Shown here: one piece after another, positions 385-60,900 of the stretch | How the letters are laid out: every line of letters begins with the position of its first letter | Position numbering within the stretch: position 1 is the first letter of the stretch | Origin: a bacterium | GTDB taxonomy: Bacteria; SAR324; XYD2-FULL-50-16; G965216635 | Assembly (NCBI GenBank): GCA_965216635.1 | Contig: OZ244188.1 | Location: 991,058-1,055,057, forward strand | Length of the DNA: 64,000 nucleotides | Direction: 5' to 3' | Notes under the pieces: generated by a model | What the model was told of the DNA's origin: nothing | Databases searched by the model: none | What the model saw: only the letters and a program-made list of their open reading frames with translations | Position numbers and translations under genes: made by a program

Positions 385-599
385 GAGATCTTTGAATTAG
401 TTGTTGTATTCGTCGTTTAATCTATTGGGGTTATGCAGCGGTGTTTCAAGTTTTTTATTTCTCAAAATACTTGAGACTGTTTCGCAAGACGATATTTTAG
501 TTCTTTTATCACCAGTCTAACCACTGGGGGTAAAAAATTTTTGTGCCTTGTCTAGCTTTCCTAGCCATCTTTGTCCTATTTGGCTAATTCAACAGTCTC
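385..599. mobile_element. Palindromic intergenic element (MITE/RPE-like), copy 1
   Basis: GAGATCTTTGAATTAG ... CTAATTCAACAGTCTC inverted ends; right end contains the stop codon of the mutase gene. Confidence 0.7.
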
Positions 600-2334
600 T
601 TGGGTTTTTTACTTTTAAAGAGTGGATAAGAAAAAGTTGTATTTCTTCTAGTAAAATAGAAAGTTTTTCCTCCCATTTTTTATGTCCTCTCAAATAAAGA
701 GAAGTTTTATCTTCTGTGCCTGAATTTCTAATAAAAACAGCCGCTTGGGTAGATTCTTGTTGTTGAATAGTCCAATAGTGCAAGTCAGGTTGATTCGCAA
801 AATTTTCTTTTTTAATCTTTAAAGACGCAAGGTTTAGTTTTTGAAATTGCTTTATTACAAAATGATGCAACGACAACGAAAATTCCTTATTGTGCAACAT
901 TTTTTTATTGACTTCATATATGGCTAAATTTTTTAAAATTCCAATAGGATATTGATTTTGTAGTTTCTGAAAAAATTCTTTTGTAGGAGTATTGCCACAA
1001 GTTGAAAAAATACTAGGCAGACTTTTTAGAGCAGTCAAAATACCATTCCCTGTAAAAAACAATCGCTTTCTTTTGAAAATAGTAACCTTAGAAGTATTTT
1101 CGCCTCCTTTCCTAATTTTTATATAGGTAGGAAAAATAAAATGGCCCGAGTCCTCGTAGCCCAACTGAAAAGCATCTCCCATTTCGTTCGCTTTTTGCAG
1201 TAGCCATCTATCTCCTATAGGTGAAATGGTTTGTCGCCAACCTTGATTTTCTGCAAAAATTTTTATTTGTAAATCACTTTCTATCGTATTATAAAAATTC
1301 ACTGTTTTCCCTTTTTTTTCTAAATCACACAAAAAGTGAATTGCTAAACTATCGCCTGTTAGTATTTGAATTTTTTTAGCATAAGTATCGTATTCCGCTC
1401 GCATAAATCTATCTCCATCACCATCAAAAATAAATCCTGTAAGAAATAGCTCCCCCTTATCTACTTTTATATTATTCTCTGCTTCTGCAAACATTTTTAT
1501 AAATAACTGATGATTAGCAAAAACTCCCCCTACATTAATATCATTCACTAAAATTTCTTTTCTTCCTTCTAAATCAGTTACTCCGCAGTGATGGTTGATT
1601 CTACCTTTAGTATTTAAAAAAACAATTTTATGAAATTTAAAAAACTTAAAAACTTTTTCTACTGTTTCAGTAACTGCTCCATTTGCACAATCCACCATTA
1701 AAATAGTCTTAGAAAAAATTTTATCTTTTTTCATCTGCTTGCAGAGATTACGAGTAAATTGCCTGATTGCTTTATCTTTCAAACTTTTCTGAGGTTTAGA
1801 AAAAAGTTTTTTTCTGTGAGGCAAATCAGGAAGAGGGTAAGGTAGTTCTTGGAGGAGTTGGCTAAACTTTGCTTCTTGCTCGGGTAGCATTTTCATAGCT
1901 TTTTGTGGTAAAAAAATTTTGATTCCATTTTGATTATCTGGATTGTGCGAAGCAGTAAGCATCAAGGCTCCAGATCTACCTCGTTTCACAAGATAAAAAG
2001 CCAACGCAGGAGTAGGCACTATATCTAAAAATCTCAGGCTCATACCTGCTTTTTGAATACCATTTAAACAGGCTTGAGTATAATAAAAATCTGTATCCCT
2101 TGTATCTCTGCCTACCATAATAAAATCTCCGTATCGGGCTAGCTTTTCTTTCAGAAGATATTTACAAAAACCATAAGCGTAAAGTTCAAAAAATTCTGGT
2201 ATAAGAATATTTTTTTCCAAAAAAATTTTAATCGGGTCCCTTTTTCCTATCTCACCTGCTGAAAGTGGTACTCGTTCAATATAACCTCTAACTCCATCTG
2301 TGCCTTGTAGTATTTTAACCATTCTGTATTTCAT
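589..2334 (-). CDS. glmM: Phosphohexomutase, phosphoglucosamine mutase-like
   Basis: GTDG, TASHNP (phosphoserine), DGDGDR (metal loop), GYEDSGH and RNSGTE motifs; longer than typical GlmM, substrate not certain. Confidence 0.65.
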   Translation of the reverse strand: MKYRMVKILQGTDGVRGYIERVPLSAGEIGKRDPIKIFLEKNILIPEFFELYAYGFCKYLLKEKLARYGDFIMVGRDTRDTDFYYTQACLNGIQKAGMSLRFLDIVPTPALAFYLVKRGRSGALMLTASHNPDNQNGIKIFLPQKAMKMLPEQEAKFSQLLQELPYPLPDLPHRKKLFSKPQKSLKDKAIRQFTRNLCKQMKKDKIFSKTILMVDCANGAVTETVEKVFKFFKFHKIVFLNTKGRINHHCGVTDLEGRKEILVNDINVGGVFANHQLFIKMFAEAENNIKVDKGELFLTGFIFDGDGDRFMRAEYDTYAKKIQILTGDSLAIHFLCDLEKKGKTVNFYNTIESDLQIKIFAENQGWRQTISPIGDRWLLQKANEMGDAFQLGYEDSGHFIFPTYIKIRKGGENTSKVTIFKRKRLFFTGNGILTALKSLPSIFSTCGNTPTKEFFQKLQNQYPIGILKNLAIYEVNKKMLHNKEFSLSLHHFVIKQFQKLNLASLKIKKENFANQPDLHYWTIQQQESTQAAVFIRNSGTEDKTSLYLRGHKKWEEKLSILLEEIQLFLIHSLKVKNPRDC

Positions 2335-2388
2335 AGACTTTTGAATTCGCCTTGTCTAGCCGTCACATCAGCGAAATTCAAAGGTCTA
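2334..2388. mobile_element. Minimal palindromic element (ends plus short core)
   Basis: TAGACTTTTGAATTCG...CAGCGAAATTCAAAGGTCTA; touches the glmM start and thiN stop. Confidence 0.75.
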
Positions 2389-3033
2389 GTCTATTTCATT
2401 TAGTTTATGTTCCAAAAATATAATCAACATCCCTCTCTTCCAATATAACTTAACAGGTGTTTTTTTTACTCTATTAGAAATACTAACACAACCTCCAAAG
2501 TCTAAGTTTTCACCTAATAGCTCGTATTCTAAACCTTCGCTAGACAATTTTTCTACCCTACCAAATAAAGGAAAAAAAGAAATACGACTTCCTGTTTTTG
2601 CTGTTATTACTTTTTCCTTGAACGCTAACTCTATAGATTCACTTGGAGTCCAAAAGCAGATTTTTTGAAAATCTGTATAATATAACTTTAATATACTAAT
2701 ATTAAAAAGTAAATGGTCTACACGCGAGCCTACCAAACCTAAAACGTTCACTTCTTCCACTAATTTTTTTTTAAGATAATTTAAAGTTTTTTGAAAATCT
2801 GTAGTGTCTTGATTGTATTCTTGCACAATCCTATTTTTTTTTATATTCTCTGGAAGTTGCTCTTTATCAAGAGAATCCATATCTCCTATAACGAAATCTG
2901 GAGTGAATCCAGCATCAGAAACAAAATGAAAGCTTCCATCAGTGCAAATGCAAACATCACTTTTATTCCAAAAATAGGCTAGTAACTGACGAGAAACTGG
3001 ATAACCATTTAAAATTACTAGCGCTTTTTTCAT
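2386..3033 (-). CDS. thiN: Thiamine diphosphokinase
   Basis: ILNG...CTDG...GDMDS...QDTTDFQK...GSRVDH...SISN motifs; start moved to ATG 3033. Confidence 0.9.
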   Translation of the reverse strand: MKKALVILNGYPVSRQLLAYFWNKSDVCICTDGSFHFVSDAGFTPDFVIGDMDSLDKEQLPENIKKNRIVQEYNQDTTDFQKTLNYLKKKLVEEVNVLGLVGSRVDHLLFNISILKLYYTDFQKICFWTPSESIELAFKEKVITAKTGSRISFFPLFGRVEKLSSEGLEYELLGENLDFGGCVSISNRVKKTPVKLYWKRGMLIIFLEHKLNEID

Positions 3034-3087
3034 CTTTTTATTATACAAAAATTATTGCATTATGTCTGTTTCAGAGGCAATATTTTA

Positions 3088-3352
3088 TAGACTATCGTAT
3101 TTGCATTCTGTTTAGCCAAAACAAACGTTGAAAAAAATTTTTAACTCTTAAAATATCGTAGTGAAAAATACTACAAAATTTGCATAATCCAAAAAAGAAA
3201 TGTAAAAGAGCCAGTGGCTCTTTTACTATAACCCTTATTTTGTGTTAAGCAGTAAGAGAGCATTCCCGCGAGCTAAAATTTTTTTTCGCAGCTGTTCTAA
3301 CCATTTGGCTAGCCCCAATAATAAAATAAGCATCAGCGAAATTCAAAGGTCT
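3088..3352. mobile_element. Palindromic intergenic element
   Basis: TAGACTATCGTATTTGCATTCTGTTTAGCC ... GCATCAGCGAAATTCAAAGGTCT with internal hairpin GTAAAAGAGCCAGTGGCTCTTTTAC. Confidence 0.75.
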
Positions 3353-3375
3353 TATTGACTATAAACTTACTAAAA

Positions 3376-4470: not shown

Positions 4471-4490
4471 TTATTTCTTTTTTTTGATTT

Positions 4491-4913
4491 ATGCTTTTTA
4501 AAATTTACATAGATGAATCAGGAGATGAACCTCCAGAAATAATTTTTTCTAATAGAAAACAGTTGAAATTAAATAATTTTATAAATTATTTAAATCATTT
4601 AAAAAATTTAGAAAAAAAAAGTTCAATTCAGTGGGATTTTTTAAAAATAGATTCTAATCATATCAATTCAGCATCAGCCAATCAATTGGTGGGATTGCAA
4701 TTTGCAGATTGTTTTGCAACTGCATTTAGAAATTATGGATTTGAGATCAATAGTTTTGGAGCAGTTGAAACTAGCTACGTTCAAATTTTAAAACCGCTTG
4801 TTTATCATCAAAATAATAACTACAAATCTAATGGGCTTAAAATTTTAGGAAATACAACAAAATGTTGCGAAGAAACAAAGAATTTATTGAAATTTTACAA
4901 TATTGAAGTGTAA
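4491..4913 (+). pseudogene. DUF3800-family (RNase H-like) gene with apparent internal deletion
   Basis: YIDESGD at the N-terminus joined directly to IIFSNR...GLQFAD...GLK C-terminal block; only 140 aa. Confidence 0.7.
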
Positions 4914-4929
4914 AGTATAGAGAAAAGAG

Positions 4930-5010
4930 AGGAGGGCTAGTCCCTAGAGTGAGTTTCCTGCCCACTAAAGACAGGCTGCGTCCCTTCAGACGCCACACTT
5001 TAGCCTAGCG
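4930..5010 (+). ncRNA. Candidate structured RNA downstream of DUF3800 gene
   Basis: GC-rich island; stems GGCTA/TAGCC, AGTG/CACT, GCGTC-ccttca-GACGC and possible pseudoknot CCTG/CAGG; DUF3800-associated RNA motifs are known. Confidence 0.55.
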
Positions 5011-5081
5011 CATACTAACCCAGTTAACAATATGGATACTTTTTTATATTTTGTCAAGTTTAGTATTCTAATTTTTTTTTC

Positions 5082-6500: not shown

Positions 6501-6546
6501 AATCGTGTAAATAATTAAATTTAGGTTAAATAACAAAACTTCATAA

Positions 6547-6833: not shown

Positions 6834-6878
6834 GAGAACTTTGCCAACTAAAAATTAGAACGCTAATTCAAAGGTCTA
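6834..6878. mobile_element. Minimal palindromic element
   Basis: GAGAACTTTGCC...GAACGCTAATTCAAAGGTCTA. Confidence 0.65.
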
Positions 6879-9294: not shown

Positions 9295-9316
9295 GAGACT
9301 TTTGAATTAGTCTACG
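9295..9316. mobile_element. Solo end of palindromic element
   Basis: GAGACTTTGAATTAG just after the gmd stop; no matching right end recognised. Confidence 0.45.
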
Positions 9317-9475
9317 GGAATAGTGAAAATTTTCTTTAAAGGTGTTTCTTTAAAAAATAGAAACTTTTCATACGGCATAAAAAATTCTTTATTCCTACAA
9401 AAAACACTAAATTACATGGCTGGAAATATCTGTTATTTCATTTCCATCGGTTAACTTTTTTTCATAGTGTTTGGT

Positions 9476-10216
9476 TTATTTATTTTTTTTCATAAATTTG
9501 GCGATCTGTTTGTTTGCTTCAATACCTTCTTCGGTATCTAGCAACTCTCTTTTAATTATATCATTTTTAATAATTTCACTAATCTCATCTGTTTTAATTT
9601 TCATATTATTTTTTAGTTTATTTAGATGAAATTTTACCACTTTAGCAATCGGTTCAGTTTGTAATAAAGCTCCTATAGTGTAGCGATTCATAAATTTTTT
9701 TATTTCAGCATATTCACTAATAAGGTCTTTGCTAACTCCTTTTCTACACAGTAAAAATAACTCTTCCTGTTCTTCTTTTTTTTTAGGATTTATTGCTTCA
9801 AAATTAAAACTAAAAAGCTCTTTGCTAGTAATTTTGTTTTTTAAAGTAACACAATGAACTTGCCAATCTATTCCGTTAGTTAATACTACCCATTTTATAC
9901 CTTCATCTGCTGCATAATGAATAGCTTGTTTTAAGTGTATATCTTTCAATTGGATTCCTATTGCCTTAACTTCAATGAGATAGTCAATTTTTTTATTTGT
10001 CTTTATGGCAAGATCACAATATGTTCCTTTAATTTCATATTCTCTTGTGATTTCTGAATATTTATCAAATCCAAAGATTTCTTCTAGCATATCAGCAACA
10101 ATAGCTACAGTATCTGCTTCGTTAATATCTGATTCTTTTGCTTTAACTAATATTTTTTGAAATCTTGGCACTTTAGAAATTAATCTTTGTGCAACTGCTG
10201 ATGGAATTTTACTCAT
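9476..10216 (-). CDS. Stand-alone type I restriction HsdR N-terminal-like (PD-(D/E)xK) protein
   Basis: NEADT...EYEI...CDLAI...LIEVKAI...QAIHYA...WVVLTNG pattern. Confidence 0.75.
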   Translation of the reverse strand: MSKIPSAVAQRLISKVPRFQKILVKAKESDINEADTVAIVADMLEEIFGFDKYSEITREYEIKGTYCDLAIKTNKKIDYLIEVKAIGIQLKDIHLKQAIHYAADEGIKWVVLTNGIDWQVHCVTLKNKITSKELFSFNFEAINPKKKEEQEELFLLCRKGVSKDLISEYAEIKKFMNRYTIGALLQTEPIAKVVKFHLNKLKNNMKIKTDEISEIIKNDIIKRELLDTEEGIEANKQIAKFMKKNK

Positions 10217-10430: not shown

Positions 10431-11945
<1,515 letters not shown>

Positions 11946-14193: not shown

Positions 14194-14377
14194 TAGTCCT
14201 TTGAATTTGCCAAATAGCACAAAACTAGCTGTGACGAGCTAGCCAAATGGTTAGAACAGGTGCGAAAATTTTTTTTAGCTCGCTGGAATGCTGAAGAGCA
14301 TTTCTTCACAAATGGCAAGAGTTAAAAAAAATTTTCACCTCTGCATAGGCTAAACAGAATGCAAATTCAAAAGTCTA
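14194..14377. mobile_element. Palindromic intergenic element
   Basis: TAGTCCTTTGAATTTGCC ... GGCTAAACAGAATGCAAATTCAAAAGTCTA. Confidence 0.8.
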
Positions 14378-15323: not shown

Positions 15324-15878
15324 TAGATCTTTGAATTTGCCAAATAGCACAAAACTAGCTGTGACTGCTAGCCAAATGGCTAGAACAGGTGCGAAAAAAT
15401 TTTTTAGCTCGTAGGAATACTGAAGTATTTCAAGAGTTAAAAAATTTTTTCAACGCTGCATAGGCTAAACAGAATGCAAATTCAAAATTCTATTTTATTA
15501 AAATTAAGAAGACCATTGAATTAGTGTTATGCGATAGCTAGCCAAATGGTTATAAAAGTGCAAAAAAAAAATTAGCTCGCTGAAATATCGTAGTGCCACA
15601 ATAACGAGACAGGGACACTACAAAATTTGCATAATTTCCAAAAAGAAATGTAAAAGAGCCAAAAGGCACTTTTACTATAGCCCTTATGAAATAGATCGCA
15701 ACAAGAGAGAGCATTTCTTCACAAATTGCAAGAGTTAAAAAAAATTTTTAACTCTTGCTTTGGCTAAACAGAACGTTAATTCAAAGGTCTCTAAGATTTT
15801 TGAATGAATGCGAAGTCTAGCAAAGCAAAAAATTTTTAAACGATGCCTAGACTAAATTGCTTTACATTCAAAAGTCTC
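15324..15878. mobile_element. Three abutting palindromic elements (about 15324-15492, 15510-15791, 15794-15878)
   Basis: Three pairs of AGA(T/C)(C/T)(T/A)TTGAAT ... ATTCAAA(G/A)(G/T)TCT ends sharing internal modules. Confidence 0.8.
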
Positions 15879-22793: not shown

Positions 22794-22808
22794 GAAACCT
22801 TTGAATTA
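22794..22808. mobile_element. Solo element end overlapping ferredoxin stop
   Basis: GAAACCTTTGAATTA. Confidence 0.45.
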
Positions 22809-23036
22809 GGCTGCATCGTTGCCAATGGCTTCTACAGGACAAGACTCGTAGGCTTCTTGGCAAGCATTTTCTTCTTCTAGGTTGGTAGGTTGTTTGTAGA
22901 CAATATCGTGGTCTTGGGCAAGACTATGGCAAAAATTTTGAGGAGAAATTTCGGAGCACAAACCACAATCTATACAGTCATGATCCACATAGTATTTTCC
23001 AGCAACATTATCTTCGTAGCGGTTTTGGTTTGACAT
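22806..23036 (-). CDS. Ferredoxin (single cluster)
   Basis: CIDCGLC ... CPVEAI. Confidence 0.9.
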   Translation of the reverse strand: MSNQNRYEDNVAGKYYVDHDCIDCGLCSEISPQNFCHSLAQDHDIVYKQPTNLEEENACQEAYESCPVEAIGNDAA

Positions 23037-24973: not shown

Positions 24974-25007
24974 TGTGGTTTATATTTTTTAAGTTAATTT
25001 TATTAGT

Positions 25008-26603
<1,596 letters not shown>

Positions 26604-33353: not shown

Positions 33354-33508
33354 TAGACCTTTTGAATTTGCGTTATGTGACGGCTAGCCAAATGGTTAGG
33401 CAGGTGCGAAAATTTGTAAAACAGCGGAGCATACACGCTAGTATGTGAGCATTTTTTACAAATTTTCAACGCTGCATAGGCTAAACAGAATGCAAATTCA
33501 AAGGTCTA
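33354..33508. mobile_element. Palindromic element between atpF' and atpF
   Basis: TAGACCTTTTGAATTTGC ... GCAAATTCAAAGGTCTA; core GCGGAGCATACACGCTAGTATGTGAGC; overlaps atpF' stop. Confidence 0.85.
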
Positions 33509-34004: not shown

Positions 34005-35273
34005 CTATTTAAAGCGAAGCACGAAGCGGATATAAATAGCATTCGTGGATTTCACCTTGATTACACGATTCTCTGTATTGGTGGTTGTGCTTCGCACATT
34101 GGCTCTTCTAGTTTCCGTTATTGTTTGGGTTCGGGTAACCTCTATCCTATTGTCTGGTTGATTATCCCCAGTAAGGCGGCTATCTGGGTTGTTGATTCCA
34201 ACTACCAAAGAATCTTCTCTCTTTGTATCAGTATTCGTAGCTTCATCAGATACTATTTCATAGGTTGGTGTTGGTGTTGAGACTACAACATTTTTTTCTA
34301 CTGAAAGAGAGCTTCCAGACCAAAGAGCACCTGCTTGCACGGAAAGGTTTTTGGTTATGGAGTAGTCGTAACCAAACTGTACCGCTGGAGCTGTTTTGGA
34401 CGCTGAACCTAAGTCAGTATCCAAAGTCAAATTAGCCAAACCAGCGCCTACAGAAAACCCGTAGGGCAGAAAATAATTCGCAACCGCAATTACAGAGTTG
34501 AGCCTGTTGTTTCCTTCTGTTAAAGCGTAGTACTGCAAAGAGACTCCCCATTTTTCCAAGTTGTAACCAAACAGGATTCCGTAACCACCTAGCGAATCAG
34601 TCCGAGAAATATTGGGACTAGAACTAGTAGAACCAGCAACAGGTTTAGTGCTAGTGGAGTCTAATATGTCACCAATACTACCAAAATCTAGCTCAGTAAA
34701 TCTGTTTTTACATAAATTATTTCTTTCTACTGTAGAAATGCCATTAAACGAACTTAATGTTCCACGAGTTGCATCTAAAGACAAGAATGTTACAGCTCCA
34801 CCCTCACCCACACTTTGCTCGCAGGCGGTTTTAGCAGCTGTAATTCCCTCATTCTGTAACGCTTCGCCTCTCCCATTTGGGGTACTTGTCCAATTTTCCT
34901 GTCCCTCAACAGGAATGTAATTTTGAAAATTAGAAATACCATCTAGCGTAGTATCAAATATTGCACCTGTATAGCTATTGCTCACTGCTGTGATTTCAAG
35001 ATCTGCAGATACCTCCATTTTTGTTGTTGTTCTCCTAATATTGCTAGTTTCTGTCGTTATCTCAAAACCCGAAACAAAAGGACTAACCCCCACAAACCAA
35101 CCCAGCTGTCTTGCTTGTTTTCCTTCTTGGGCTTTTAAACTACCCACCCCTGCATAGAAAAATAAAAATGCCGCTGTAAATATAAGGGGCAAAACAACCG
35201 ATTTCAATACAACCAATCTCAATACAAACGACTTCAAAACAAACAGGTTCAATTTAATATTTATAGATTTCAT
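34005..35273 (-). CDS. Outer-membrane beta-barrel protein with large loops (paralogue 2)
   Basis: Signal peptide, GWFVGVS..SGFEITT, YGILFGYNLEKW, ANYFLPYGFSVGAG, VQFGYDY, terminal IRFVLRFK; collinear with 5082-6500. Confidence 0.75.
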   Translation of the reverse strand: MKSINIKLNLFVLKSFVLRLVVLKSVVLPLIFTAAFLFFYAGVGSLKAQEGKQARQLGWFVGVSPFVSGFEITTETSNIRRTTTKMEVSADLEITAVSNSYTGAIFDTTLDGISNFQNYIPVEGQENWTSTPNGRGEALQNEGITAAKTACEQSVGEGGAVTFLSLDATRGTLSSFNGISTVERNNLCKNRFTELDFGSIGDILDSTSTKPVAGSTSSSPNISRTDSLGGYGILFGYNLEKWGVSLQYYALTEGNNRLNSVIAVANYFLPYGFSVGAGLANLTLDTDLGSASKTAPAVQFGYDYSITKNLSVQAGALWSGSSLSVEKNVVVSTPTPTYEIVSDEATNTDTKREDSLVVGINNPDSRLTGDNQPDNRIEVTRTQTITETRRANVRSTTTNTENRVIKVKSTNAIYIRFVLRFK

Positions 35274-35368
35274 AATATAATTTATTATTTTAAGATTAAA
35301 AAACAAAACTTTATAAAGGATAGCTAAAAACAAATAAAAAAACAAATAAAAAAACCAAATGCATTGCT

Positions 35369-35508
35369 GGGGACATTTTTTTTGCTCCAAATGGTTGACT
35401 AAGCAACCATTTTGGGTGAAAATGTGTCCCCGAAAAAACCCCTTCTTCTTTAAGAACGGGGACACATTTTTTGCCCAAAATGGTTGAATAAGCAAAAAAA
35501 ATGTCCCC
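35369..35508. repeat. Alternative inverted repeats (GGGGACA...AAATGGTTG)
   Basis: 35404-35431 is complementary to both 35369-35397 and 35458-35487. Confidence 0.7.
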
Positions 35509-35706
35509 TGCAGGTTTGGAAAAAAAAACATCCCCTGCAGGTTTGGAAAAAAAAACATCTCCTACAGGTTTGGAAAAAAAAACATCCCCTGCAGGTTTGG
35601 AAAAAAAAATGTCCCCTGCAGGTTTGGAAAAAAAAACATCCCCTACAGGTTTGGAAAAAAAAACATCCCCTGCAGGTTTGGAAAAAAAGAACATCTCCTA
35701 CAGGTT
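35501..35706. repeat. 27-bp VNTR, 7 full copies plus a partial
   Basis: A(C/T)(A/G)TC(C/T)CCT(G/A)CAGGTTTGGAAAAAAAA units. Confidence 0.95.
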
Positions 35707-35712
35707 TTTTAA

Positions 35713-39980: not shown

Positions 39981-39997
39981 CTATTTCCAATTTTTTA

Positions 39998-40044
39998 GAG
40001 ACCTTTTGAATTAGACATTATACCTTGTTTAATTCAAAGATCTC
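39998..40044. mobile_element. Minimal palindromic element
   Basis: GAGACCTTTTGAATTAG...AATTCAAAGATCTC; supplies RDL-stop of the adjacent gene. Confidence 0.75.
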
Positions 40045-40360
40045 TTTGTAATTGTAATTTTATCAATCTTAATTCCATTTCCAATTTTTTTAAATTTCGT
40101 TTAATAATTTCCAAGTCTTTTACATTTTTTTCTCTATCTGTATTTAAATCATCTATTTGCTGGCTAAGTAACAAAAGACTTCTTTTGAGTTGTTTAGAAA
40201 GATTTTCTATTTGTTTGTTTTGTTTTTCTTGAATCTCTAATTTTATTACTCTTTTTTCTAGAGCTCTAATTCTACCTATTTGAGATTCAGCAGAAGCACA
40301 AGAAAGTAGAGATAGCGGAAGTAGTAAGATAAAAAGATTTTTATTGCTAAAAAATTTCAT
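40034..40360 (-). CDS. Coiled-coil lipoprotein
   Basis: Lipobox LLSC, heptad pattern. Confidence 0.65.
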   Translation of the reverse strand: MKFFSNKNLFILLLPLSLLSCASAESQIGRIRALEKRVIKLEIQEKQNKQIENLSKQLKRSLLLLSQQIDDLNTDREKNVKDLEIIKRNLKKLEMELRLIKLQLQRDL

Positions 40361-40385
40361 TTTTTTTAAGGGACGATATATTTTA

Positions 40386-40769
40386 TAGACCTTTGAATTT
40401 GCCAAATAGCACAAAACTAGCTGTGACGGCTAGCCAAATAGTTAGAAAACTGTAAAAAAAAAATTTAGCTCGCAGGAATATCGTAGTGCCACAATAATGG
40501 AACCAGGGCACTACAAAACTTGCATAATTCTCAAAAAGAAATTCAAAAGTGCCAACTTTTTTGGTGTAGATTTATTGTTGTCTACCAGCAAGAGTGCCAC
40601 TGGCACTCTTGCACAAAAACCTTATTATATTTCAATTTTTCATACATTTGGTTGTTTTGAACTTTTACTATAGCCCTTATGAAATAGATAGCAAAAGAAA
40701 AGTATTTCAAGAGTTAAATTTTTTTTAAAACACTGCATAGGCTGAACAGAATGTAAATTTAAAGGTCTA
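40386..40769. mobile_element. Longest palindromic element copy
   Basis: TAGACCTTTGAATTTGCC ... GTAAATTTAAAGGTCTA; internal hairpin AAGAGTGCCACTGGCACTCTT. Confidence 0.8.
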
Positions 40770-42109: not shown

Positions 42110-42844
42110 TCATAGTATCCGCCCTCCTTGAAAACGAAAAACAAAAACAAATTCTTTCACCCTATACTCATTCGGAATTACAGGAAACGGGTGGGAATTT
42201 TTGATAGCTTCTAGAGCCGACAAATCAAAGGCAGACAACCGAGAATTTCGCACAATTTTGACATCATCCAATGCACCCGTTTTGAGTATTTTAGCTTGAA
42301 TAATTACTTGCAGTTTTTTATCGCTAAAAGAGCTTTTCCAGTTATTTTGAATGATAGCTTCAATCAATTTTTTATACTCATTATTTTGTTGAGTAGAATC
42401 TACTGCTGAGGCTTCTGTCTTAACAGTTAGATTTTGGGTTGTAGTTTTTTTATTATTATTTGTAATGTTAGGCGAGCTCGGTTGATTGAGCTGGATGTTT
42501 TTTAAATCAGGTTCTTGAACAACATCCAACCCTTCTTGAACTTCCCTCAATAAATCTTCGTCTGCTTCAAGGTTAAGTTGTTTCAGACTCCTTGCCAAAT
42601 TATTATCAAAATTGCTTGTAGAAGACGACTTAGAAGACGACTGCAGAGTTTTTTGTTTTGATTTTGTCTGATTTGATTTTGCATTGCTCGTTTGAGTTTT
42701 TGAGGATTTTTGAAAATAAACTTTGGTCTTAATAGGCTGAACGGGAATATAGGAAGTAGAATAATAAAGTGATATTGCCAATGCAAGCAATAGATGGCAG
42801 GTAAAGGATGCGAATAGAAATCTAGAAAATTTTAAATTATTCAT
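42110..42844 (-). CDS. tolA: TolA/TonB-family protein
   Basis: N-terminal TM with SxxxH, low-complexity linker, TonB_C-like end (FDLSALEAI...FP). Confidence 0.75.
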   Translation of the reverse strand: MNNLKFSRFLFASFTCHLLLALAISLYYSTSYIPVQPIKTKVYFQKSSKTQTSNAKSNQTKSKQKTLQSSSKSSSTSNFDNNLARSLKQLNLEADEDLLREVQEGLDVVQEPDLKNIQLNQPSSPNITNNNKKTTTQNLTVKTEASAVDSTQQNNEYKKLIEAIIQNNWKSSFSDKKLQVIIQAKILKTGALDDVKIVRNSRLSAFDLSALEAIKNSHPFPVIPNEYRVKEFVFVFRFQGGRIL

Positions 42845-42957
42845 CTTATTATTTAAAACAGAGAATATTGAATTAGAAAGACTTTTGAAGTTTAGCACTC
42901 TAGGAATGCTAGACAAGGCAAAAAATAGAGCCGAACTAGAATACCTAATTCAACATT

Positions 42958-43215
42958 GAAACCTTTGAATTAGTGTTATGTGACGGCTAGGCAAGGCGTA
43001 AATTTGTAAAAAAGCGGAGCATACACGCTAGTATGTGAGTATTTTTTACAAATTTTTAATGGCGTAGTGCCACAATAATGTGATCAGGGCACTACAAAAC
43101 CTAAAGCTAACACAATATAGACTGCAAAAGCTCCAGTGGAGCTTTTGCTAAAGCCTGTATAGGGTGAAAGCAATAAGCTTGCTTTGGCTAAACAGAACGC
43201 TAATTCAAAGGTCTC
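42958..43215. mobile_element. Palindromic intergenic element
   Basis: GAAACCTTTGAATTAG ... CTAATTCAAAGGTCTC; hairpin GCAAAAGCTCCAGTGGAGCTTTTGC. Confidence 0.8.
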
Positions 43216-43223
43216 ACAGTCTC

Positions 43224-43634
43224 TTAGAGTTCTTCTACCAATAGCCCTATATCTTGGAAACCTAAATTTCGGATTTGTGCCATTAACTTAACCACTGCAC
43301 CATAACTTAGTCTGCGATCTGCTTGAATAAAAACCTGCTTGCCGCCCTTTTTTTGGTATTTTATCAGCTCAGCCTTGAGAAAAGTAAAATTTTTTCTTTG
43401 CTTGAGGTAATAAATTCTGTTCTGAGAATCTAAGCTCACAATAAATTCTCGTTTTGGAGTGGTAACCGTTTTTTGAAACTTTTCTTTGGGTAAAGAAATC
43501 TGTATATCCTTAGTGATTACTGGGGCTGTAATCATAAAAATAATGAGTAAAATTAATAAAACATCTACAAAAGGAGTGACATTGATGTCACCTATATCTT
43601 TATCTATATCTATTTTTTGAGAAATAAATTTCAT
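43224..43634 (-). CDS. tolR: TolR/ExbD
   Basis: INVTPFVDVLLILLIIFMITAP, ADRRLSYG. Confidence 0.9.
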   Translation of the reverse strand: MKFISQKIDIDKDIGDINVTPFVDVLLILLIIFMITAPVITKDIQISLPKEKFQKTVTTPKREFIVSLDSQNRIYYLKQRKNFTFLKAELIKYQKKGGKQVFIQADRRLSYGAVVKLMAQIRNLGFQDIGLLVEEL

Positions 43635-44296: not shown

Positions 44297-44311
44297 AAAG
44301 TCAAAAGTCTC

Positions 44312-44452
44312 GAGATCTTTGCATTAATGCAATTTGGCAGCTAGGCAAGGCGCAAAAGTTTTTTATTTTGCTACGAATACTGAAGTATTTTGAGAAATAA
44401 AAAACTTGAATAACGACGCATAGGCTAAATAGAACACTAATGCAAAGGTTTC
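44312..44452. mobile_element. Palindromic intergenic element
   Basis: GAGATCTTTGCATTA ... TAATGCAAAGGTTTC, preceded by a second end remnant TCAAAAGTCTC. Confidence 0.75.
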
Positions 44453-44539: not shown

Positions 44540-44610
44540 CTGATATTTTAAATCTGGTATTTTAAATCTGGTATTTTAAATCTGGTATTTTGAATTCTGA
44601 TATTTTGAAT
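44540..44610. repeat. Degenerate 13-15-bp tandem repeat (AAATCTGGTATTTT)
   Basis: Three near-perfect copies at 44551-44591 with degenerate flanking copies. Confidence 0.75.
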
Positions 44611-44662
44611 CAGGCATTATATTTGTGTCTATACCTGATTCAAAAAATCTCTCTCCAAATTA

Positions 44663-45547: not shown

Positions 45548-45770
45548 TAGAACTTTGAATTTGCCAAATAGGACAAAACTAGCTGTTTAGCCAAACCAAG
45601 CTTATTACTTAACGTTTTTTATAGGCTATTTGTAAAAGAGCCAGTGGCTCAATAACTATAACCCTTATTTTGTGTTAAGCAGTAAGGGAGTATTCCAGCG
45701 AGCTAAAAAATTTTTAGCACCTGTTCTAACCATTTGGCTAGCCGTCACATAATACAAATTCAAAGTTCTA
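45548..45770. mobile_element. Palindromic intergenic element
   Basis: TAGAACTTTGAATTTG ... CAAATTCAAAGTTCTA. Confidence 0.8.
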
Positions 45771-48975: not shown

Positions 48976-49209
48976 TAGACTTTTTAATTTGCATTCTGTT
49001 TAGCCCATGCAGCGTTGAAAAAAAAATTTTTAGCTCGCAGGAATATCAATGAAAAACACTGTAAAGCCCAAGTAAATTTGTAAGTAAATTTGTAAGACTA
49101 AACAGTGTCACCATAATAAAACATATTTCCAGAAATCTCAACCAACGAGGAATAAAAAAAATTTAACGATTGCTTTGGCTAAACTTTGGTAAGCAAATTC
49201 AAAGGTCTC
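48976..49209. mobile_element. Palindromic intergenic element
   Basis: TAGACTTTTTAATTTGC ... GCAAATTCAAAGGTCTC. Confidence 0.75.
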
Positions 49210-49277
49210 ATATTATTGAAGTAGCCCTTACCAATTCAACGGTCTCATATTATTGAAGTAGTCCTTACCAATTCAAC
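49204..49277. repeat. 2x37-bp tandem duplication at element end / MFS stop
   Basis: GGTCTCATATTATTGAAGTAG(C/T)CCTTACCAATTCAAC twice. Confidence 0.9.
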
Positions 49278-50457
49278 GGGGTGGATTTTCAAACTTTCTC
49301 AAAAGTAGTAAAAAAAACATCCCGTAGGCAAGCAAAAAAAAATAAACAAAAAAAATATTATAATTTAGCAAAAAGCCACTGCCAAGAGCCCCTACAAAAT
49401 GTCCAAAAAATTGGAATGTTTGAAAAAAACCACTAGCCGTTCCCTTATTTTCTTTACTACTTAAACGGGTAACTAAAGAAGGAAAAATAGGTTCAAAGAT
49501 ACTAAACCCAATAAAAAAAAGCACTAGCCCTGCTACAATAAACCAAAAATTAAGCTGGTAAATGCCAAAAATTGCCAAAATAAAAGAAGACATCAAAAAA
49601 CCCACCCCTAATAAAATACCTCTATCAAATTTATTTTTACTCTCTACATAAAAAGTAACAGGAAACATAAATAAAAAACTCATTGCCAACATCAAAAGAT
49701 AAATTTTCCATAATTCTTCTTTAGGAAAACCTAGATAGTTAAATAAAAAAATTTGACTAATAAACAGAACACTAGAAAGCCCCATTCCACTAAAAAAAGA
49801 GCCGAAGTAGATAATTCTTAATTGCCTGTTTTTTAAACAACTTTGTAAAGAAGTCTTAAAAGCTATATTTTTTTTAGGACGAGTATTTGTATCTTGGATA
49901 AACAAAATCACTACTCCTAAAGAAATAAAACTTAAAACAGCAATTAGCTGAAAAAAATGATGAATATTCCACCAAATAGAAAGAATCGGAGCTAAAACAA
50001 AAGCTAAACAAAAAGCAATACCAATACTCATCCCTAAGAAAGCACTAGCTCTAGCCCTCACAGAATCTCTTGTTTTATCCGCAAGCAGCGCAAAAATGAC
50101 TGATGCCATTGCACCCATTCCTTGAATAAAACGCGCAAGAATAATCCAATAAATGTTATTCGCATAGCTGGCAAGCAGACTACCTAAAAAAAATAAAATT
50201 AATGCCCCAACAAGAACTTTTTTTCTGCCCCAAACATCCGAAAAATAGCCTGCTGGAAGCTGACATAATCCTTGCGTTAGACCATAAATTCCAAAAGCTA
50301 AGGCTACTAAAAAAAAATTCGCATAATCTACCTCCTGCGCCAATATATTAAAGACTGGAAGGATAAAAAAAATAGAAAACATCCTGAAAAACAAAACCAG
50401 ACCCAGCAAACAAACTGCGATTATTTCAGTTTTTTGTAAAGCAATAAACTTTTTCAT
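49273..50457 (-). CDS. MFS transporter, YajR-like
   Basis: RMFSIFFILPV, GIYGLTQ...SDVWGRK, ARFIQGMGA. Confidence 0.85.
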   Translation of the reverse strand: MKKFIALQKTEIIAVCLLGLVLFFRMFSIFFILPVFNILAQEVDYANFFLVALAFGIYGLTQGLCQLPAGYFSDVWGRKKVLVGALILFFLGSLLASYANNIYWIILARFIQGMGAMASVIFALLADKTRDSVRARASAFLGMSIGIAFCLAFVLAPILSIWWNIHHFFQLIAVLSFISLGVVILFIQDTNTRPKKNIAFKTSLQSCLKNRQLRIIYFGSFFSGMGLSSVLFISQIFLFNYLGFPKEELWKIYLLMLAMSFLFMFPVTFYVESKNKFDRGILLGVGFLMSSFILAIFGIYQLNFWFIVAGLVLFFIGFSIFEPIFPSLVTRLSSKENKGTASGFFQTFQFFGHFVGALGSGFLLNYNIFFVYFFLLAYGMFFLLLLRKFENPPR

Positions 50458-50860: not shown

Positions 50861-50981
50861 GAGACTTTTGAATTTGCATTCTGTTTAGCCAAAACAAACG
50901 TTGAAAATGCAGCGTTGAAAAAAATTTTAACGGTTGCTTTGGCTGAACAGAACGCTAAATTTCACTACTAGCAAAGGTCTC
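50861..50981. mobile_element. Palindromic intergenic element
   Basis: GAGACTTTTGAATTTGC ... GCAAAGGTCTC; abuts ATG of 50860 gene. Confidence 0.75.
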
Positions 50982-50983
50982 TT

Positions 50984-53395: not shown

Positions 53396-53467
53396 GATCT
53401 TTTGCTAAACTTGTATTTAAAGCAATAAGCCTGTTTTTCCGAACTAGAACGCTAATTCAGAGGTCTC
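53396..53467. mobile_element. Short palindromic element
   Basis: GATCTTTGCTAAAC ... CGCTAATTCAGAGGTCTC. Confidence 0.6.
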
Positions 53468-54155: not shown

Positions 54156-54248
54156 AATTTTTTTAGAAAAGTTAAGAATTGTTGCTTTAAAGCAACAATT
54201 CATTGGTTATAAAAACTATAGTTTAATATAAAAACAAATAATTAACAA

Positions 54249-55682: not shown

Positions 55683-55726
55683 AGTTATTTAAATAGTTAA
55701 TAGTTAATAGGAATAACACAAGGTTT

Positions 55727-55840
55727 AAGTTTTTTTACACTTTTTAAAAAATTTTTGCAAGTTTTTTTACACTTTTTAAAAAGTTTTTATAACTTTTTTT
55801 ACACTTTTAAAAAAATTTTACACTTTTTAAAAAATTTTTA
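55727..55840. repeat. AT-rich tandem repeat, about 32-bp period
   Basis: TTACACTTTT(T)AAAAA cores at 55736, 55768, 55800 and 55819. Confidence 0.75.
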
Positions 55841-57442
55841 CAACTTTTTCTTATTTTTTTGTCTAAAATTCTCTTTATTTACAGAAATATATTTTTCAAA
55901 AAATTTTTGCAATGCTTTTTTTTGCTCTTCGTTCATATACTCAAAATTTATTCCCCTATCAGTTACTTCCCAAAATTTTTTGTTTTTCACTCCTAAAAGT
56001 TGATTTTTCAACCCTGTAATAGAATGATAGGTTTCTTGTTCTTCAAAAACTTGGACTATCTTCTGTATTAAATTGGTATCCGCCTTATGAGAAAACAGAT
56101 AAGCCGCAAGAATCAACTGCGCTTTTCTGACTCCAGCCTTTGCTATAGGGTGGCTTTGGTTGCTAAAAACATCGTCAAAATTTAAAAACATTTCTAGCAA
56201 TTTTTCAAAATTTTTTACTTTCCTTTCAAAAGGTTTCTTGAGCAGAAATCCAATATCATAAGCAGAAATCATCAATATAAACCAAATTCCACTATCATAA
56301 GCAATTTTACCGTAATATTTAAAGTAAAAAATAATCCTTTCTGCTAAATCTTCCTTGTGATTATCAAAAAGCGCTTCCGCTACTAGACGATATTGATAAA
56401 ACAGATTGAAAATAACTCTTTGATTTTTTTCGTTTAAGGCAAGCCGCAAAAAAGTATTGAAATACTCTATTGTTAAATGAATGCTTTCTTCCTGCTTATT
56501 TATTATAGAGGCTACTCCTATTTTCCGTGTGTTGTAGGTTATAGCGCTGGTTGTATCCGCCATAGTGCGGAAAGAGGTTTTAAAAATCCCCTCCATATTC
56601 ATAAAAATCATACTATCCAGCCAAATCTTTTTTTCTAAAATTTCATTATAGAATTCTTCTGATATATTGATGAAAAAATCAGCAGGAACTACAAACCAAC
56701 TCGGGGGCAGTTCGGATTTAATACTTTGGTAGTTAATTAAAAGGTCGCGTAGTCTATTCACAGAGATTAGGGACATATTTCTATCTTCTTGGCTAGTGGA
56801 GTTTAACGCAGTATCCGAAAGTTGTTCTATAACATTTACCATTTCATTTTGTTTTTTTTCAATATAGGTTTGTTTAGATTTTTTGTGGACTTGACGAAAT
56901 ATTTTCACGGATTTTTTCTGTATTCCAGCCATAATGTTTTCTGGAGATAAAAAATTAAAAACATAACTAAAGTAGGGTAATAATAATCCTATTTGAATAG
57001 AGGTAGAAAAAACTGCAAAAAATGCAGCATAAATGGGAACAAATTGATTCTTGATAGAATAAGTAATAAATATAGTAAAAAGGAGATTAAAAACCATAAA
57101 GAAAAAAAAGAGGCGATTCACATGATTTTCTAAAAACAAATCCGCTAGTTTAGGGGTATATTTTTGGGCTGCTAGCTGAACAACGATCGCGACCACTGTC
57201 AAAACTATACCTAAAATAGCAACATTCAATTCAATAAAATTAGAAATGGAGTTGTAGATATTGTGGGAATCTGTGAAGAAAGTTGCCTTAAAGCTAAAAC
57301 CAGCAGAAAAAAGGCTCAATACCAAATAAATAAGATAACTCCCCAAAACCAATAAAATCAGCGGAAGTATCCAACCTTGGAATAAGTGTTTTATGAGACT
57401 CATTTGATTAGAGCCTTTCCATTTTTTTAGATTTTTTATCAT
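55838..57442 (-). CDS. DUF2254-like membrane protein
   Basis: VVAIVVQLAAQKYTPKL motif, 4 TM helices then helical domain. Confidence 0.7.
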   Translation of the reverse strand: MIKNLKKWKGSNQMSLIKHLFQGWILPLILLVLGSYLIYLVLSLFSAGFSFKATFFTDSHNIYNSISNFIELNVAILGIVLTVVAIVVQLAAQKYTPKLADLFLENHVNRLFFFFMVFNLLFTIFITYSIKNQFVPIYAAFFAVFSTSIQIGLLLPYFSYVFNFLSPENIMAGIQKKSVKIFRQVHKKSKQTYIEKKQNEMVNVIEQLSDTALNSTSQEDRNMSLISVNRLRDLLINYQSIKSELPPSWFVVPADFFINISEEFYNEILEKKIWLDSMIFMNMEGIFKTSFRTMADTTSAITYNTRKIGVASIINKQEESIHLTIEYFNTFLRLALNEKNQRVIFNLFYQYRLVAEALFDNHKEDLAERIIFYFKYYGKIAYDSGIWFILMISAYDIGFLLKKPFERKVKNFEKLLEMFLNFDDVFSNQSHPIAKAGVRKAQLILAAYLFSHKADTNLIQKIVQVFEEQETYHSITGLKNQLLGVKNKKFWEVTDRGINFEYMNEEQKKALQKFFEKYISVNKENFRQKNKKKL

Positions 57443-58002: not shown

Positions 58003-58028
58003 AGTTAAGTGAATTTAAATAAAAAACA

Positions 58029-58192
58029 GAGACCTTTGCTAAACATTCTAAGACTATTGAACTTTAGCATTATAGGAAAGCTAGACAAGGCGCGAAAATT
58101 TTTTACCCAAGAGGAATACTGAAGTATTTTGAGTGATAAAAAATTTGAGCAACGCAGTATAGCTGAACTAGAATGTCTAATTCAATAGTCTC
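58029..58192. mobile_element. Palindromic element with nested second left end
   Basis: GAGACCTTTGCTAAAC then AGACTATTGAAC ... CTAATTCAATAGTCTC. Confidence 0.75.
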
Positions 58193-58263
58193 ATTTTAGT
58201 TTGAAAATCTCGTGTTTTAGATTAAAAAAAGAGTACTACCCGATTATATAAAAAATAGCAAAA

Positions 58264-59235: not shown

Positions 59236-59657
59236 ACTTTAAAAAAACAAATTCTAGAATAGCAGCTATCAAAATATACTATCAAAAACAAAGACTAGGC
59301 AATTCTCAGCTAGGAGAGACAATTATAAACCAAAAAATGATAAAAAATCTCACTCAAGAAGAACAAACATACACACAAGAAATGCTTACTTTTCAACAAG
59401 AAAATAAAAACTATATAGACAAACTTATTCAAAAACACTTAAAACACTGGAAACAAAATCGCCTACTCACAGTTATCAATAGTATTTTAAGTTTAGCCAT
59501 TACAGAAAAATTGCTACACCCCAAACTTGCAAAAAATATTATTATCAACGAATTTCTGGAAATTACTAGAACACTGAGCGAAGAAAAATCAGTCGCTTTT
59601 TGTAATGGAATTTTAAGTAGTGTATTTGCTGAAATAGAAACCAATAGAAACCAATAG
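59232..59657 (+). CDS. nusB: Transcription antitermination factor NusB
   Basis: SRIAAI..YQ, HWKQNRL, IIINEFLEI, FCNGIL. Confidence 0.8.
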   Translation: MNFKKTNSRIAAIKIYYQKQRLGNSQLGETIINQKMIKNLTQEEQTYTQEMLTFQQENKNYIDKLIQKHLKHWKQNRLLTVINSILSLAITEKLLHPKLAKNIIINEFLEITRTLSEEKSVAFCNGILSSVFAEIETNRNQ

Positions 59658-59720
59658 AAACCAATAGAAACCAATAGAAACCAATAGAAACCAATAGAAA
59701 CCAATAGAAACCAATAAAAA
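59641..59720. repeat. 10-bp tandem repeat CCAATAGAAA x7 plus variant
   Basis: Direct reading. Confidence 0.97.
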
Positions 59721-59729
59721 AAAATAAAA

Positions 59730-60494
59730 GTGGCTCTATCTTATCTACTATCCATAGCCCCCATGGCAGGCTACACCAACAGCCAATACCGTCAGAAGCT
59801 GAGACTAATCACAAAAAAAACACTACTTTTCACTGAAATGGTAACAAGTCACGCTATTCTTAGGGGAGACATGCATAGATTTTTGAATTTTCAGCAATGC
59901 GAAAAACCAGTAGTTTTTCAAATCGCCGGCAACGAACCACAAGCACTCACAGAATGCGCCAGCGCTATTGAAGATTACGGCTACGACGGCATCAACCTCA
60001 ATATAGGCTGCCCTAGTCCCAAAGTACTAAAAGGAGATTTTGGAGTTTGTTTGATGGGAAAGCCAGAACTCGTTGCCGAATCTATCTATCAAATGAAAAA
60101 AAAAACTTCCCTTCCCATCAGCGTAAAAACAAGATTAGGTTTTGATAATAATGATTCCCCTGAATTTTTAGAAAAATTTATTCGCCACTGTGCAGCTGCA
60201 GGTTGCGGAGTTTTTTTTATTCACGCAAGAAAAGCTTTACTCAACCTCAAACCACGCCAAAACAGAAGCATACCTCCTTTGCAATACGACAGTGCTAAAG
60301 AAGTAAAAAAAAAATTCCCCAAGTTAAAAATTATTATCAACGGAGGCATAACCTCTTTAGAACAAGCAAAAACTCTTTTACAAGATTTTGATGGAGCTAT
60401 GATTGGAAGAACTGCTTGTAAAAACCCATCCCTATTCCAAACAGCCGATAGTTACTTTTTCCAAGAAAAAGACCCCTCACCAACCCAGCAATAA
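59730..60494 (+). CDS. dusA: tRNA dihydrouridine synthase A (apparently C-terminally short)
   Basis: APMAG, TEMV, INLNIGCPS, SVKTRLG, HARKA..L.P.QNR.IPPL, INGGI. Confidence 0.85.
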   Translation: MALSYLLSIAPMAGYTNSQYRQKLRLITKKTLLFTEMVTSHAILRGDMHRFLNFQQCEKPVVFQIAGNEPQALTECASAIEDYGYDGINLNIGCPSPKVLKGDFGVCLMGKPELVAESIYQMKKKTSLPISVKTRLGFDNNDSPEFLEKFIRHCAAAGCGVFFIHARKALLNLKPRQNRSIPPLQYDSAKEVKKKFPKLKIIINGGITSLEQAKTLLQDFDGAMIGRTACKNPSLFQTADSYFFQEKDPSPTQQ

Positions 60495-60559
60495 ACCTTT
60501 GAATATAAAAACTTATGGTGCAATCTTTACAGAAAGTTTTATTAAAGAACTTGGTGAAC

Positions 60560-60900
60560 TATAAAAATTTTAGACCTTTGAATTTCGCTGATGCTTATTT
60601 AACTATGGGGCTAAGCAAGGAGAGTTATAAAAATTTTAGACCTTTGAATTTCGCTGATGCTTATTTAACTATGGGGCTAAGCAAGGGAAGTTATAAAAAT
60701 TTTAGACCTTTGAATTCCGCTGCTGCTTATTTAACTATGGGGATAAGCAAGGGGAATTATAAAAATTTTAGACCTTTGAATTTCGCTGATGCTTATTTAA
60801 CTATGGGGATAAGCAAGGGGAATTATAAAAATTTTAGACCTTTGAATTTCGCTGATGCTTATTTAACTATGGGGATAAGCAAGGGGAATTATAAAAATTT
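60560..60900. repeat. 5x66-bp tandem array, each unit carrying one element end
   Basis: Units start at 60560, 60626, 60692, 60758 and 60824; each has TAGACCTTTGAATT(T/C)CGCTG(A/C)TGC. Confidence 0.95.

Follow-up and report, generated by a model that had tools for sequence, protein, structure and literature searches.

What fills the unusually long gaps between genes in a small bacterial genome, and how did it get there? This question is raised by a 64-kb stretch of DNA (the window) that covers positions 991058-1055057 of the single-contig genome (2,394,643 bp, 33.8% G+C) of a bacterium that is related to the SAR324 group, undescribed and small in genome size. A first-pass annotation had described in it about 20 copies, 45-385 bp in size, of a modular palindromic element, taken to be lineage-specific, non-autonomous and similar to MITEs (miniature inverted-repeat transposable elements), with ends of the IS5/IS1106 type. 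This description is borne out by a fixed 5-bp target duplication, by sites that are empty in related species and by the absence of the element from the other 87 genomes of the phylum. The elements have transposed. They are very probably MITEs that were derived from, and moved in trans by, an IS5-family DDE transposase and that are now either immobile or cross-mobilised.

Approximately 22 loci of 48 bp to 384 bp, located between positions 385 and 61122 of the window, were identified by reading all intergenic gaps and combining the result with a BLAST mask based on out-of-window copies and a list of termini. They belong to a single repeat family that comprises 549 loci and 82.4 kb in the 2.39-Mb genome. 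It takes up 3.4% of the total sequence and 22% of whatever lies outside crude open reading frame (ORF) calls. The inverted ends of the family read (T/G)AGACYTTTGAATT…AATTCAAARGTCT(A/C), as deduced from logos built from 268 end pairs. With at most one mismatch, the end motif AGAYYTTTGMATT occurs 42 times in the window compared to 4.4 ± 2.1 times in 100 shuffled sequences (maximum 10), and exact AGAYYTTTGAATT sites number 529 genome-wide, while the reversed control pattern is found 0-1 times. All modules named in the first-pass annotation recur throughout the genome, namely CTGTTTAGCC/GGCTAAACAG, GCTAGCCAAATGGTTAG, GGAATACTGAAGTATT, GTAGTG..CACTAC, GCGGAGCATACACGCTAGTATGTGAG and three alternative hairpins. 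Its statement that most gaps above 50 bp hold an element was somewhat too generous, as roughly half of the about 39 gaps of at least 40 bp, one of them with the 16S gene, are occupied.

Copy sizes range from 48 to 400 bp genome-wide, with a median of 136 bp. The canonical copy is an imperfect foldback of 138 bp (140 bp with the two terminal bases), TAGACCTTTGAATTTGCGTTATGTGACGGCTAGGCAAGGCGAAAAAAATTTTTAGCTCGCAGGAATACTGAAGTATTTCAAGAGTTAAAAATTTTTTTCAACGCTGCATAGGCTAAACAGAATGCAAATTCAAAAGTCTA, with a folding energy as single-stranded DNA of -36 kcal/mol (z = -9.5). T-type ends, TAGACYTTTGAATTTGC…, are present in 167 pairs and diverged G-type ends, GAGAC(T/C)NTTGAATTAG…, in 45 pairs; the outermost base pair of the element co-varies and is either T…A or G…C. 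The size classes of 138, 152, 167, 181, about 250-312 and 340-400 bp result from alternative cassettes, for which the foldback scaffold has about five fixed slots: the subterminal region on either side, the insert CCAAATGGTTAGAACAGGT of the A-arm, the B-arm and the centre. Some copies additionally contain an inner unit of about 110 bp, located in the centre, in the B arm or in both, that consists of two hairpins, GTAGTGCC…GGCACTAC and AAAAGAGCC-AGT-GGCTCTTTT. The stem of the inner hairpin exists in the alleles GAGCC, GTGCC and GCTCC; pairing is perfect in each of them, and runs of A and T lie on either side. Some copies carry A-type or B-type sequence at both ends. The coding capacity of the copies is limited to a single dubious 99-aa ORF spanning one of them. 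The repeat bases are to 95% intergenic (outside ORF calls), and no in-frame insertion into a real gene was found among the copies of the genome.

The signature of transposition is found directly beside the ends. When the element is bounded as (T/G)AGAC…GTCT(A/C), the 5 flanking bases are identical in 106 of 268 end pairs, compared to 5.7 expected from shuffling. The flanks match with a frequency of 0.67-0.74 at exactly five positions (expected 0.35-0.49), and the adjacent positions are at expectation. The duplication thus has a fixed length of 5 bp, and the consensus of the target is T-W-W-W-A. A duplication of 3 bp in the same register was rejected, since matching at the two outer positions equals that at the three inner ones. 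Insertion into hairpin targets was considered and dismissed, since, apart from the T…A of the target, the flanks contain no palindrome.

Comparison with related species, a check that the first-pass annotation had called for, revealed that at least nine copies of the window occupy sites that are empty in syntenic contigs. A first synteny set was obtained with TolB homologues of 73-81% identity and led to contigs of three related species (L060, L061 and L062/L063). In these contigs, exbD and tonB are 6 bp apart; in the window the distance is 307 bp and includes a 258-bp element nested in an older end. The distance from tolB to the next gene is 1-57 bp in the L060-L063 contigs, whereas a 384-bp element intervenes in the window. 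The gene pair that follows the tolB junction (x/pnpOx) overlaps in the related contigs and is separated by a 48-bp mini element in the window. The tolB 3' end illustrates the event at nucleotide resolution: the window reads …TATC TAAAA [TAGACC…GGTCTA] TAAAA TATAT… and L062 reads …TACT TAAAA TAAACG…. A second synteny set, L065-L067, was reached through OpuAC homologues with 79-83% identity; two of its members come from contigs of 1.46 and 1.60 Mb. Here the adh_short-opuAC gap measures 25-41 bp versus 534 bp with three elements in the window, and the opuAC-permease gap 6-9 bp versus 200 bp with one element. The element at 33354-33508 is absent from the sister species, whose two atpF-like genes overlap. 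Strain polymorphism within the sister species was uninformative, because four further contigs with 99.5-99.8% identity to L071 are collinear with it.

The elements and element remnants of the window are the following; the strand is given where one was assigned.

385-599: G-type element of 215 bp, GAGATCTTTGAATTAG … CTAATTCAACAGTCTC, with an atypical interior
2334-2388: mini element of 55 bp with intact ends and deleted interior
3086-3353, minus strand: element about 268 bp long that contains one inner unit; left end degraded, TAGACTATCGTATTTGC
6857-6878: solo right end, …CTAATTCAAAGGTCTA
9295-9330: solo G-type left end, GAGACTTTTGAATTAG…
14194-14377, plus strand: 184-bp element between opuAC and the permease gene, in a gap that is 6-9 bp long and empty in three related genomes
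15324-15492, plus strand: 169-bp element with the perfect target duplication TTTTA/TTTTA, the first of three in a spacer that measures 25-41 bp in relatives
15509-15791, plus strand: 283-bp element with one inner unit; site empty in relatives
15793-15878: diverged small element of 86 bp; site empty in relatives
22794-22815: solo G-type left end, GAAACCTTTGAATTAGG
25006-25178: G-type element of about 173 bp with a degraded right end
33354-33508, plus strand: 155-bp element with GCGGAGCATACACGCTAGTATGTGAGC centre, between the two atpF-like genes (overlapping without a gap in the sister species)
39997-40044: 48-bp mini element with a TGA in its end that stops the upstream 126-aa ORF; site empty in L060-L062
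40386-40769, plus strand: 384-bp element, the longest of the window, with a perfect target duplication (plus strand TTTTA, gene strand TAAAA); tolB has its stop codon in the terminal TAG of the element, and the site is empty in L061 and L062
42878-42957: part of an older G-type element whose end is split by the 42958-43215 insertion; the remainder lies at 43216-43225
42958-43215, plus strand: 258-bp element that contains an inner unit and lies within the end of the older copy; target duplication ACATT/ACAGT; in L060, exbD and tonB are separated by 6 bp
44297-44311: solo right end, AAAGTCAAAAGTCTC, abutting the next element
44312-44452, plus strand: diverged canonical element of 141 bp at the tip of the neighbouring end; perfect target duplication GTCTC/GTCTC
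45548-45770: element of 223 bp containing one inner unit; its two ends are both of A-type sequence
48976-49209, minus strand: 234-bp element; its right end and 23 bp of flank are tandemly duplicated (49196-49279, 37 bp × 2.3)
50861-50983: 123-bp element with B-type arms on both sides
53398-53467: right half of an element
58051-58192, plus strand: G-type canonical element of 142 bp
60556-60900, plus strand: 66-bp units repeated 5.2 times in tandem, each consisting of a T-type left end and about 20 bp of flank

The arrays at 60556-60900 and 49196-49279 give the impression that element ends seed local tandem duplication. Other minisatellites, intergenic or at gene edges, are unrelated to the family; they are located at 59633-59720, 55727-55848, 44540-44611 and 61054-61230 and have periods of 10, about 21-32, 14 and 45 bp.

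Some insertions are recent. In several pairs, the copies are 97-98.6% identical and their flanks unrelated (about 0.3 identity); every copy has a perfect duplication that belongs to it alone (TTTTA, TAATA, TGTTA, TATAT, ACTGT and TAGGA). Shared flanks, which would be predicted if the family had spread solely by recombination or segmental duplication, were not seen for these pairs. Copies with 99.6-100% identity and similar flanks were carried along by segmental duplications. Sites that are empty in relatives, together with near-identical copies at unrelated sites, each with a duplication of its own, demonstrate that the elements transposed.

The shuffling of modules noticed in the first-pass annotation, and ascribed there to recombination, fits the statistics of the whole family. 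Classification of 163 full-length copies at six slots resulted in 113 architectures. The association is strongest between the two left slots (Cramér's V 0.53) and between the inner unit and the B-arm junction (0.41), and lowest for distant slots (0.13-0.17). The modules have been reassorted, in a pattern expected of exchange between copies and not of a few clonal subfamilies. The appearance of a Russian doll, in which arms nest within arms, stems mainly from the foldback and its optional internal cassettes. Clear nested insertions do exist and are rare, with 6 ffrr clusters among 568 genome-wide. In the window, one insertion split the G-type end at 42878-43225 and another, at 44311/44312, duplicated GTCTC at the tip of another end. 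All 119 copies of the inner unit (119/119) lie inside a family element, and the ideas that it is mobile by itself or was captured from a host terminator were dismissed; as it never occurs outside the family, the unit is an optional part of it.

The two arms of the foldback evolve together. In a consensus fold of 52 pairs, 96.3% of the cells from 20 canonical copies are paired, compared to 91.1 ± 0.4 in shuffles. Changes on both sides affect 20 pairs, a number reached in 0 of 500 shuffles (6.5 ± 1.5), and slid controls yielded 2-6 such pairs. Each arm also contains an AnTm tract (n + m = 12-13) whose switch from A to T varies between A3 and A10 in step with the partner arm: the tracts are exactly complementary in 57 of 162 copies, compared to 14.9 by shuffling (maximum 27). 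As the two arms co-vary, the hairpin has been kept. The cause could be shared ancestry of the copies, template-switch correction of quasi-palindromes, which is a known mutational process, a requirement of transposition, or host selection.

The last of these causes leads to a different view of the whole family, namely that it is mainly a host-selected structural module, comparable to ERIC or BIME, whose hairpins act on transcripts or bind nucleoid proteins. A putative function in termination, RNase processing or stability, and not transposition, would then explain abundance and conservation. Compensatory change in the foldback, the joint shift of the AnTm tracts and the at least three perfectly paired stem alleles of the inner hairpin, with their A and T runs, are what such a module would be expected to display, and element ends provide the stop codons of tolB and other genes. 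The genomic context speaks another language. The orientation of the elements relative to transcription is random genome-wide (79 versus 73), and the bias of about 8 to 1 that is apparent in the window vanishes at this scale. Convergent gaps are under-represented (7.6% of copies versus 11% of gaps) and divergent promoter gaps over-represented, a skew that gap length alone predicts. Promoter-like sites are at shuffle level, and terminator-like matches inside elements are few. Relatives with genomes of 1.46-1.6 Mb do without copies in the about 50 kb compared, genome G001 lacks the family, and the covariation itself can come from the shared ancestry or the template-switch correction mentioned above. 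The view of a family maintained mainly by the host is therefore considered improbable.

A role of the elements at mRNA ends, as suspected in the first-pass annotation, is unsupported because there is neither an orientation bias nor an excess at convergent gene ends. What the elements do is remodel gene termini: 14 ORFs stop at the terminal TAG of an element and others extend a few codons into an end. It is conceivable, at rather long odds, that foldback and cassettes have been selected as portable gene-boundary modules that supply stops, predicted two-way terminators and sites for RNA processing or nucleoid proteins. If so, recombination among the about 550 copies would generate regulatory diversity in a genome otherwise endowed with very short spacers. 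Two ORF calls of the window run into an element, tonB (42110-42916, minus strand) with 268 aa compared to 222-234 aa in relatives and the 126-aa ORF (40034-40414, minus strand) with 110-117 aa in relatives. Several ORF starts and stops beside elements are artefacts or true fusions that arise from element ends, and annotations at these places should be treated with care.

Which enzyme moved the elements? The family ends GAGACCTTTGAA, GAGACTGTTGAA and GAGACTATTGAA can be compared with the left end of ISNme1, GAGACCTTTGCAAAA, the left and right ends of ISPg1, GAGACCATTGCA and TTCAAAGGTCTC, and the left end of ISPg4, GAGACTGTTGCA (PMC4596501 Table 2). They match ISNme1 at 11 of 12 positions, and GAGACTGTTG is identical to ISPg4. 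The ends of the family are thus of the IS5-family type represented by these three insertion sequences (ISs).

As the first-pass annotation had stated, no transposase gene is present within the window. The genome was searched with five Pfam transposase families (PF01609, PF00665, PF01797, PF01526 and PF13586). Scans for rve, Y1_Tnp, Tn3 and DDE_Tnp_1_2 gave no match in the genome, and clustering of multi-copy ORFs returned only outer-membrane-protein and coiled-coil families and no transposase. The only transposase matches, via DDE_Tnp_1, belong to an IS of 1,489 bp present in two copies with 99.4% identity (1838148-1839635 and 2068847-2070334). Its product is a 440-aa protein with DUF772 and DDE_Tnp_1 domains that scores 417 bits versus a cut-off of 275 for the NCBIfam model "IS5 family transposase" (NF033578). 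Both ORFs are intact, with a frame of 445 aa that is free of stops. Could this resident transposase still cross-mobilise the MITEs? Its clear membership in the IS5 family, the near-identity of its two intact copies, the IS5-like ends of the MITEs and the 97-98.6% identity of some MITE copies at different sites are compatible with the idea. However, the resident ends, CCCTTAAAAAGTC, share nothing with (T/G)AGACYTTTGAATT, no MITE-like motif was found in or near the two IS copies, and neither copy displays a 5-bp duplication. Cross-mobilisation by the resident IS lacks support from the sequences and is judged unlikely.

Palindromic, intergenic elements in high copy number also bring to mind hairpin elements of the IS200/IS605 type and the REP/REPIN-type repeats that a RAYT (Y1) transposase mobilises. 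The genome contains no match to Y1_Tnp (PF01797), and Y1 elements make neither a fixed 5-bp target duplication nor long inverted ends. With the transposase missing and the duplication present, this explanation is refuted and its probability is next to nil.

The origin from an IS5-type element can be cast into a plausible sequence of events. A transposase would recognise the terminal inverted repeat of 14-17 bp, (T/G)AGACYTTTGAATT(T/A)GC, excise the element and insert it at AT-rich TWWWA sites by a 5-bp staggered cut, the repair of which would leave the 5-bp target duplication. Insertions would survive almost solely between genes, often right at stop codons, where the terminal TAG or an internal TGA of the element can become the stop of the gene. 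The diversity of architectures may then have been produced by recombination or gene conversion among the about 550 copies, together with internal deletions and a few nested insertions, and the co-evolution of the two arms keeps the long hairpin. As no transposase with matching ends is left in the genome, the family is presumably immobile today or cross-mobilised.

Several observations weigh against this scenario. IS5 subgroups mostly generate duplications of 2-4 or 9 bp, with 5 bp for IS1126/ISPg1, and 5 bp were observed here. An autonomous IS with the family ends, which the first-pass annotation had proposed to look for, was not found in the genome: all forward and reverse end pairs spaced 600-4000 bp apart enclose ordinary genes, and the ends of the resident IS, as described above, differ. 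An unusual or degraded transposase outside the five Pfam families could have escaped the search. A perfect duplication is kept in only 40% of the copies and about 300 termini are solo, from which it follows that much of the family is old. Finally, the covariation of the arms could mean that the hairpin is selected for a host function, which transposition does not explain. On the other hand, the features that characterise MITEs are present, with a small non-coding size, inverted ends, a duplication of fixed length and dispersed copies with empty sites; the one that is absent, a cognate autonomous IS with the same ends, is usual for MITEs and not obligatory. Since no such IS resides in the genome, the family is an orphan, a status it has in common with several classic bacterial MITE families.

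The distribution of the family is narrow. The nearest named relatives by AtpA are "Deltaproteobacteria bacterium TL4" (75%) and metagenome-assembled genomes of SAR324 (70%). Among 88 species-level genomes of the phylum the element occurs in one, that of the window, and 40 relatives contain at most 15 end motifs each, which is chance level. Of the uncultured relatives located by way of their proteins, two species, L061 and L062, possess recognisable diverged members, including a canonical copy of 141 bp, the sister species (L060, L068, L071) only mini or diverged fragments, and L065-L067 no family member in the 50 kb compared. This distribution among relatives indicates that the family is old in its clade and has expanded massively in the lineage of the window, and the more streamlined relatives of the host do without it. 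The MITE load may track genome size in the clade, with about 550 loci at 2.39 Mb and none in the 20-kb stretches compared of L066 (1,601,439-bp contig, probably identical with genome G001) and L067 (1,461,652-bp contig), both of which are apparently complete. A weak excess of end motifs in two 7-8-Mb genomes of the same order was rejected as a trace of the family, the matches being heterogeneous and scattered and including no repeated IS. In JGI metagenomes, the two-ended gap pattern had 0 matches and the 20-mer GGCTAGCCAAATGGTTAGAA a single one, by chance, in a coding region. A literature search for MITEs in SAR324 gave no match.

Is the family new, then, or a member of one already described? 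The first-pass annotation had suggested Rfam as a place to look. Applied to the whole window, Rfam returned only the 16S rRNA and a DUF3800-VII RNA above the gathering score, and applied to an element only a chance U4 match well below threshold, so that no described family was recovered on the elements. A blastn search against 5,426 Escherichia coli genomes gave no match, and there is therefore no similarity to ERIC.

Analogous behaviour is known from several bacteria. Like Rickettsia palindromic elements, the family consists of lineage-specific palindromic repeats that make up a few percent of a small AT-rich genome. Rickettsia palindromic elements typically sit in frame inside protein genes, in contrast to the predominantly intergenic location found here. 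The Correia elements (CREE/NEMIS) of Neisseria are intergenic, about 100-160 bp long and present in hundreds of copies with no known transposase; end variants and an internal deletion define their subtypes, and neighbouring genes are affected. Their ends, TATAGTGGATTAA…, and their TA duplication differ from the ends and the 5-bp duplication of the present family, which has far more architectures. ERIC/IRU elements are likewise intergenic and imperfectly palindromic, with a length of about 127-140 bp that insertions at fixed internal sites can increase; the sequences are dissimilar, and ERIC is not known to possess clear inverted ends flanked by a duplication or to have been shown to transpose. 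The family thus behaves like Correia and ERIC elements.

Closer counterparts in the ends are found elsewhere. The Neisseria ATR and other MITEs with ISNme1/IS1106-type ends have nearly the same terminal repeat (GAGACCTTTGAA… here versus GAGACCTTTGCAAAA; PMC4596501). ATR and the present family are both small, AT-rich, non-coding and intergenic. The internal sequences are unrelated, the family makes a 5-bp TWWWA duplication and has no parent IS in the genome, and ATR reaches 19 copies per genome (PMC4596501) compared to about 550 loci. In Porphyromonas gingivalis, BrickBuilt/MITEPgRS (MITE464) and MITE700 share the IS5-type ends GAGACC/GAGACT… and are likewise variable inside and built of repeated modules (PMC4596501, PMC2575886). 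They occur in tens of copies, contain minisatellites arranged in tandem in their interior and share the genome with their parent ISs, ISPg1 and ISPg4. The present family differs in that it lacks a parent IS, numbers hundreds of copies and is organised as a foldback that accommodates alternative cassettes.

The elements thus form a new family of a known kind, the IS5-type MITEs, and not a new kind of system. Its notable features are density, orphan status, the 5-bp TWWWA duplication, extreme mosaicism and clear covariation of the arms. Its roughly 550 loci occupy 3.4% of the sequence and a fifth of the intergenic DNA, a burden that is to our knowledge among the heaviest known for MITEs in bacteria. 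Element insertions account for spacers of 200-530 bp in the window that measure 6-40 bp in relatives. The family offers ready markers for strain typing and the dating of divergence in this lineage, and it provides a clean example, found in nature, of MITEs without a cognate transposase, of extensive mosaicism by exchange between copies and of co-evolving foldback arms.

A second, unrelated repeat with about 75 copies in the genome is absent from the window; it includes TTTTAATAAACGTTCTAAATTTATGAGACGCCCATATAGGACGTCTCTACAGACCTACAT, with the palindrome GAGACGCCCATATAGGACGTCTC. The 16S rRNA gene of the window (10431-11944, minus strand) stands alone. It is followed by a protein ORF (9476-10216) and not by a 23S gene, and the rRNA genes are therefore unlinked. 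The DUF3800-VII RNA match (4930-5020, minus strand; 51.6 bits versus a gathering score of 36.2) lies just after the gene at 4491-4913. At 34005-35712, a gene for a 517-aa outer-membrane-barrel-like protein is preceded by a tandem repeat of 27 bp × 7.9 (35494-35707). It is located between tyrS and the first atpF-like gene, and as these two are 74 bp apart in the sister species (L069), the whole barrel-like gene is an insertion in the lineage of the window.

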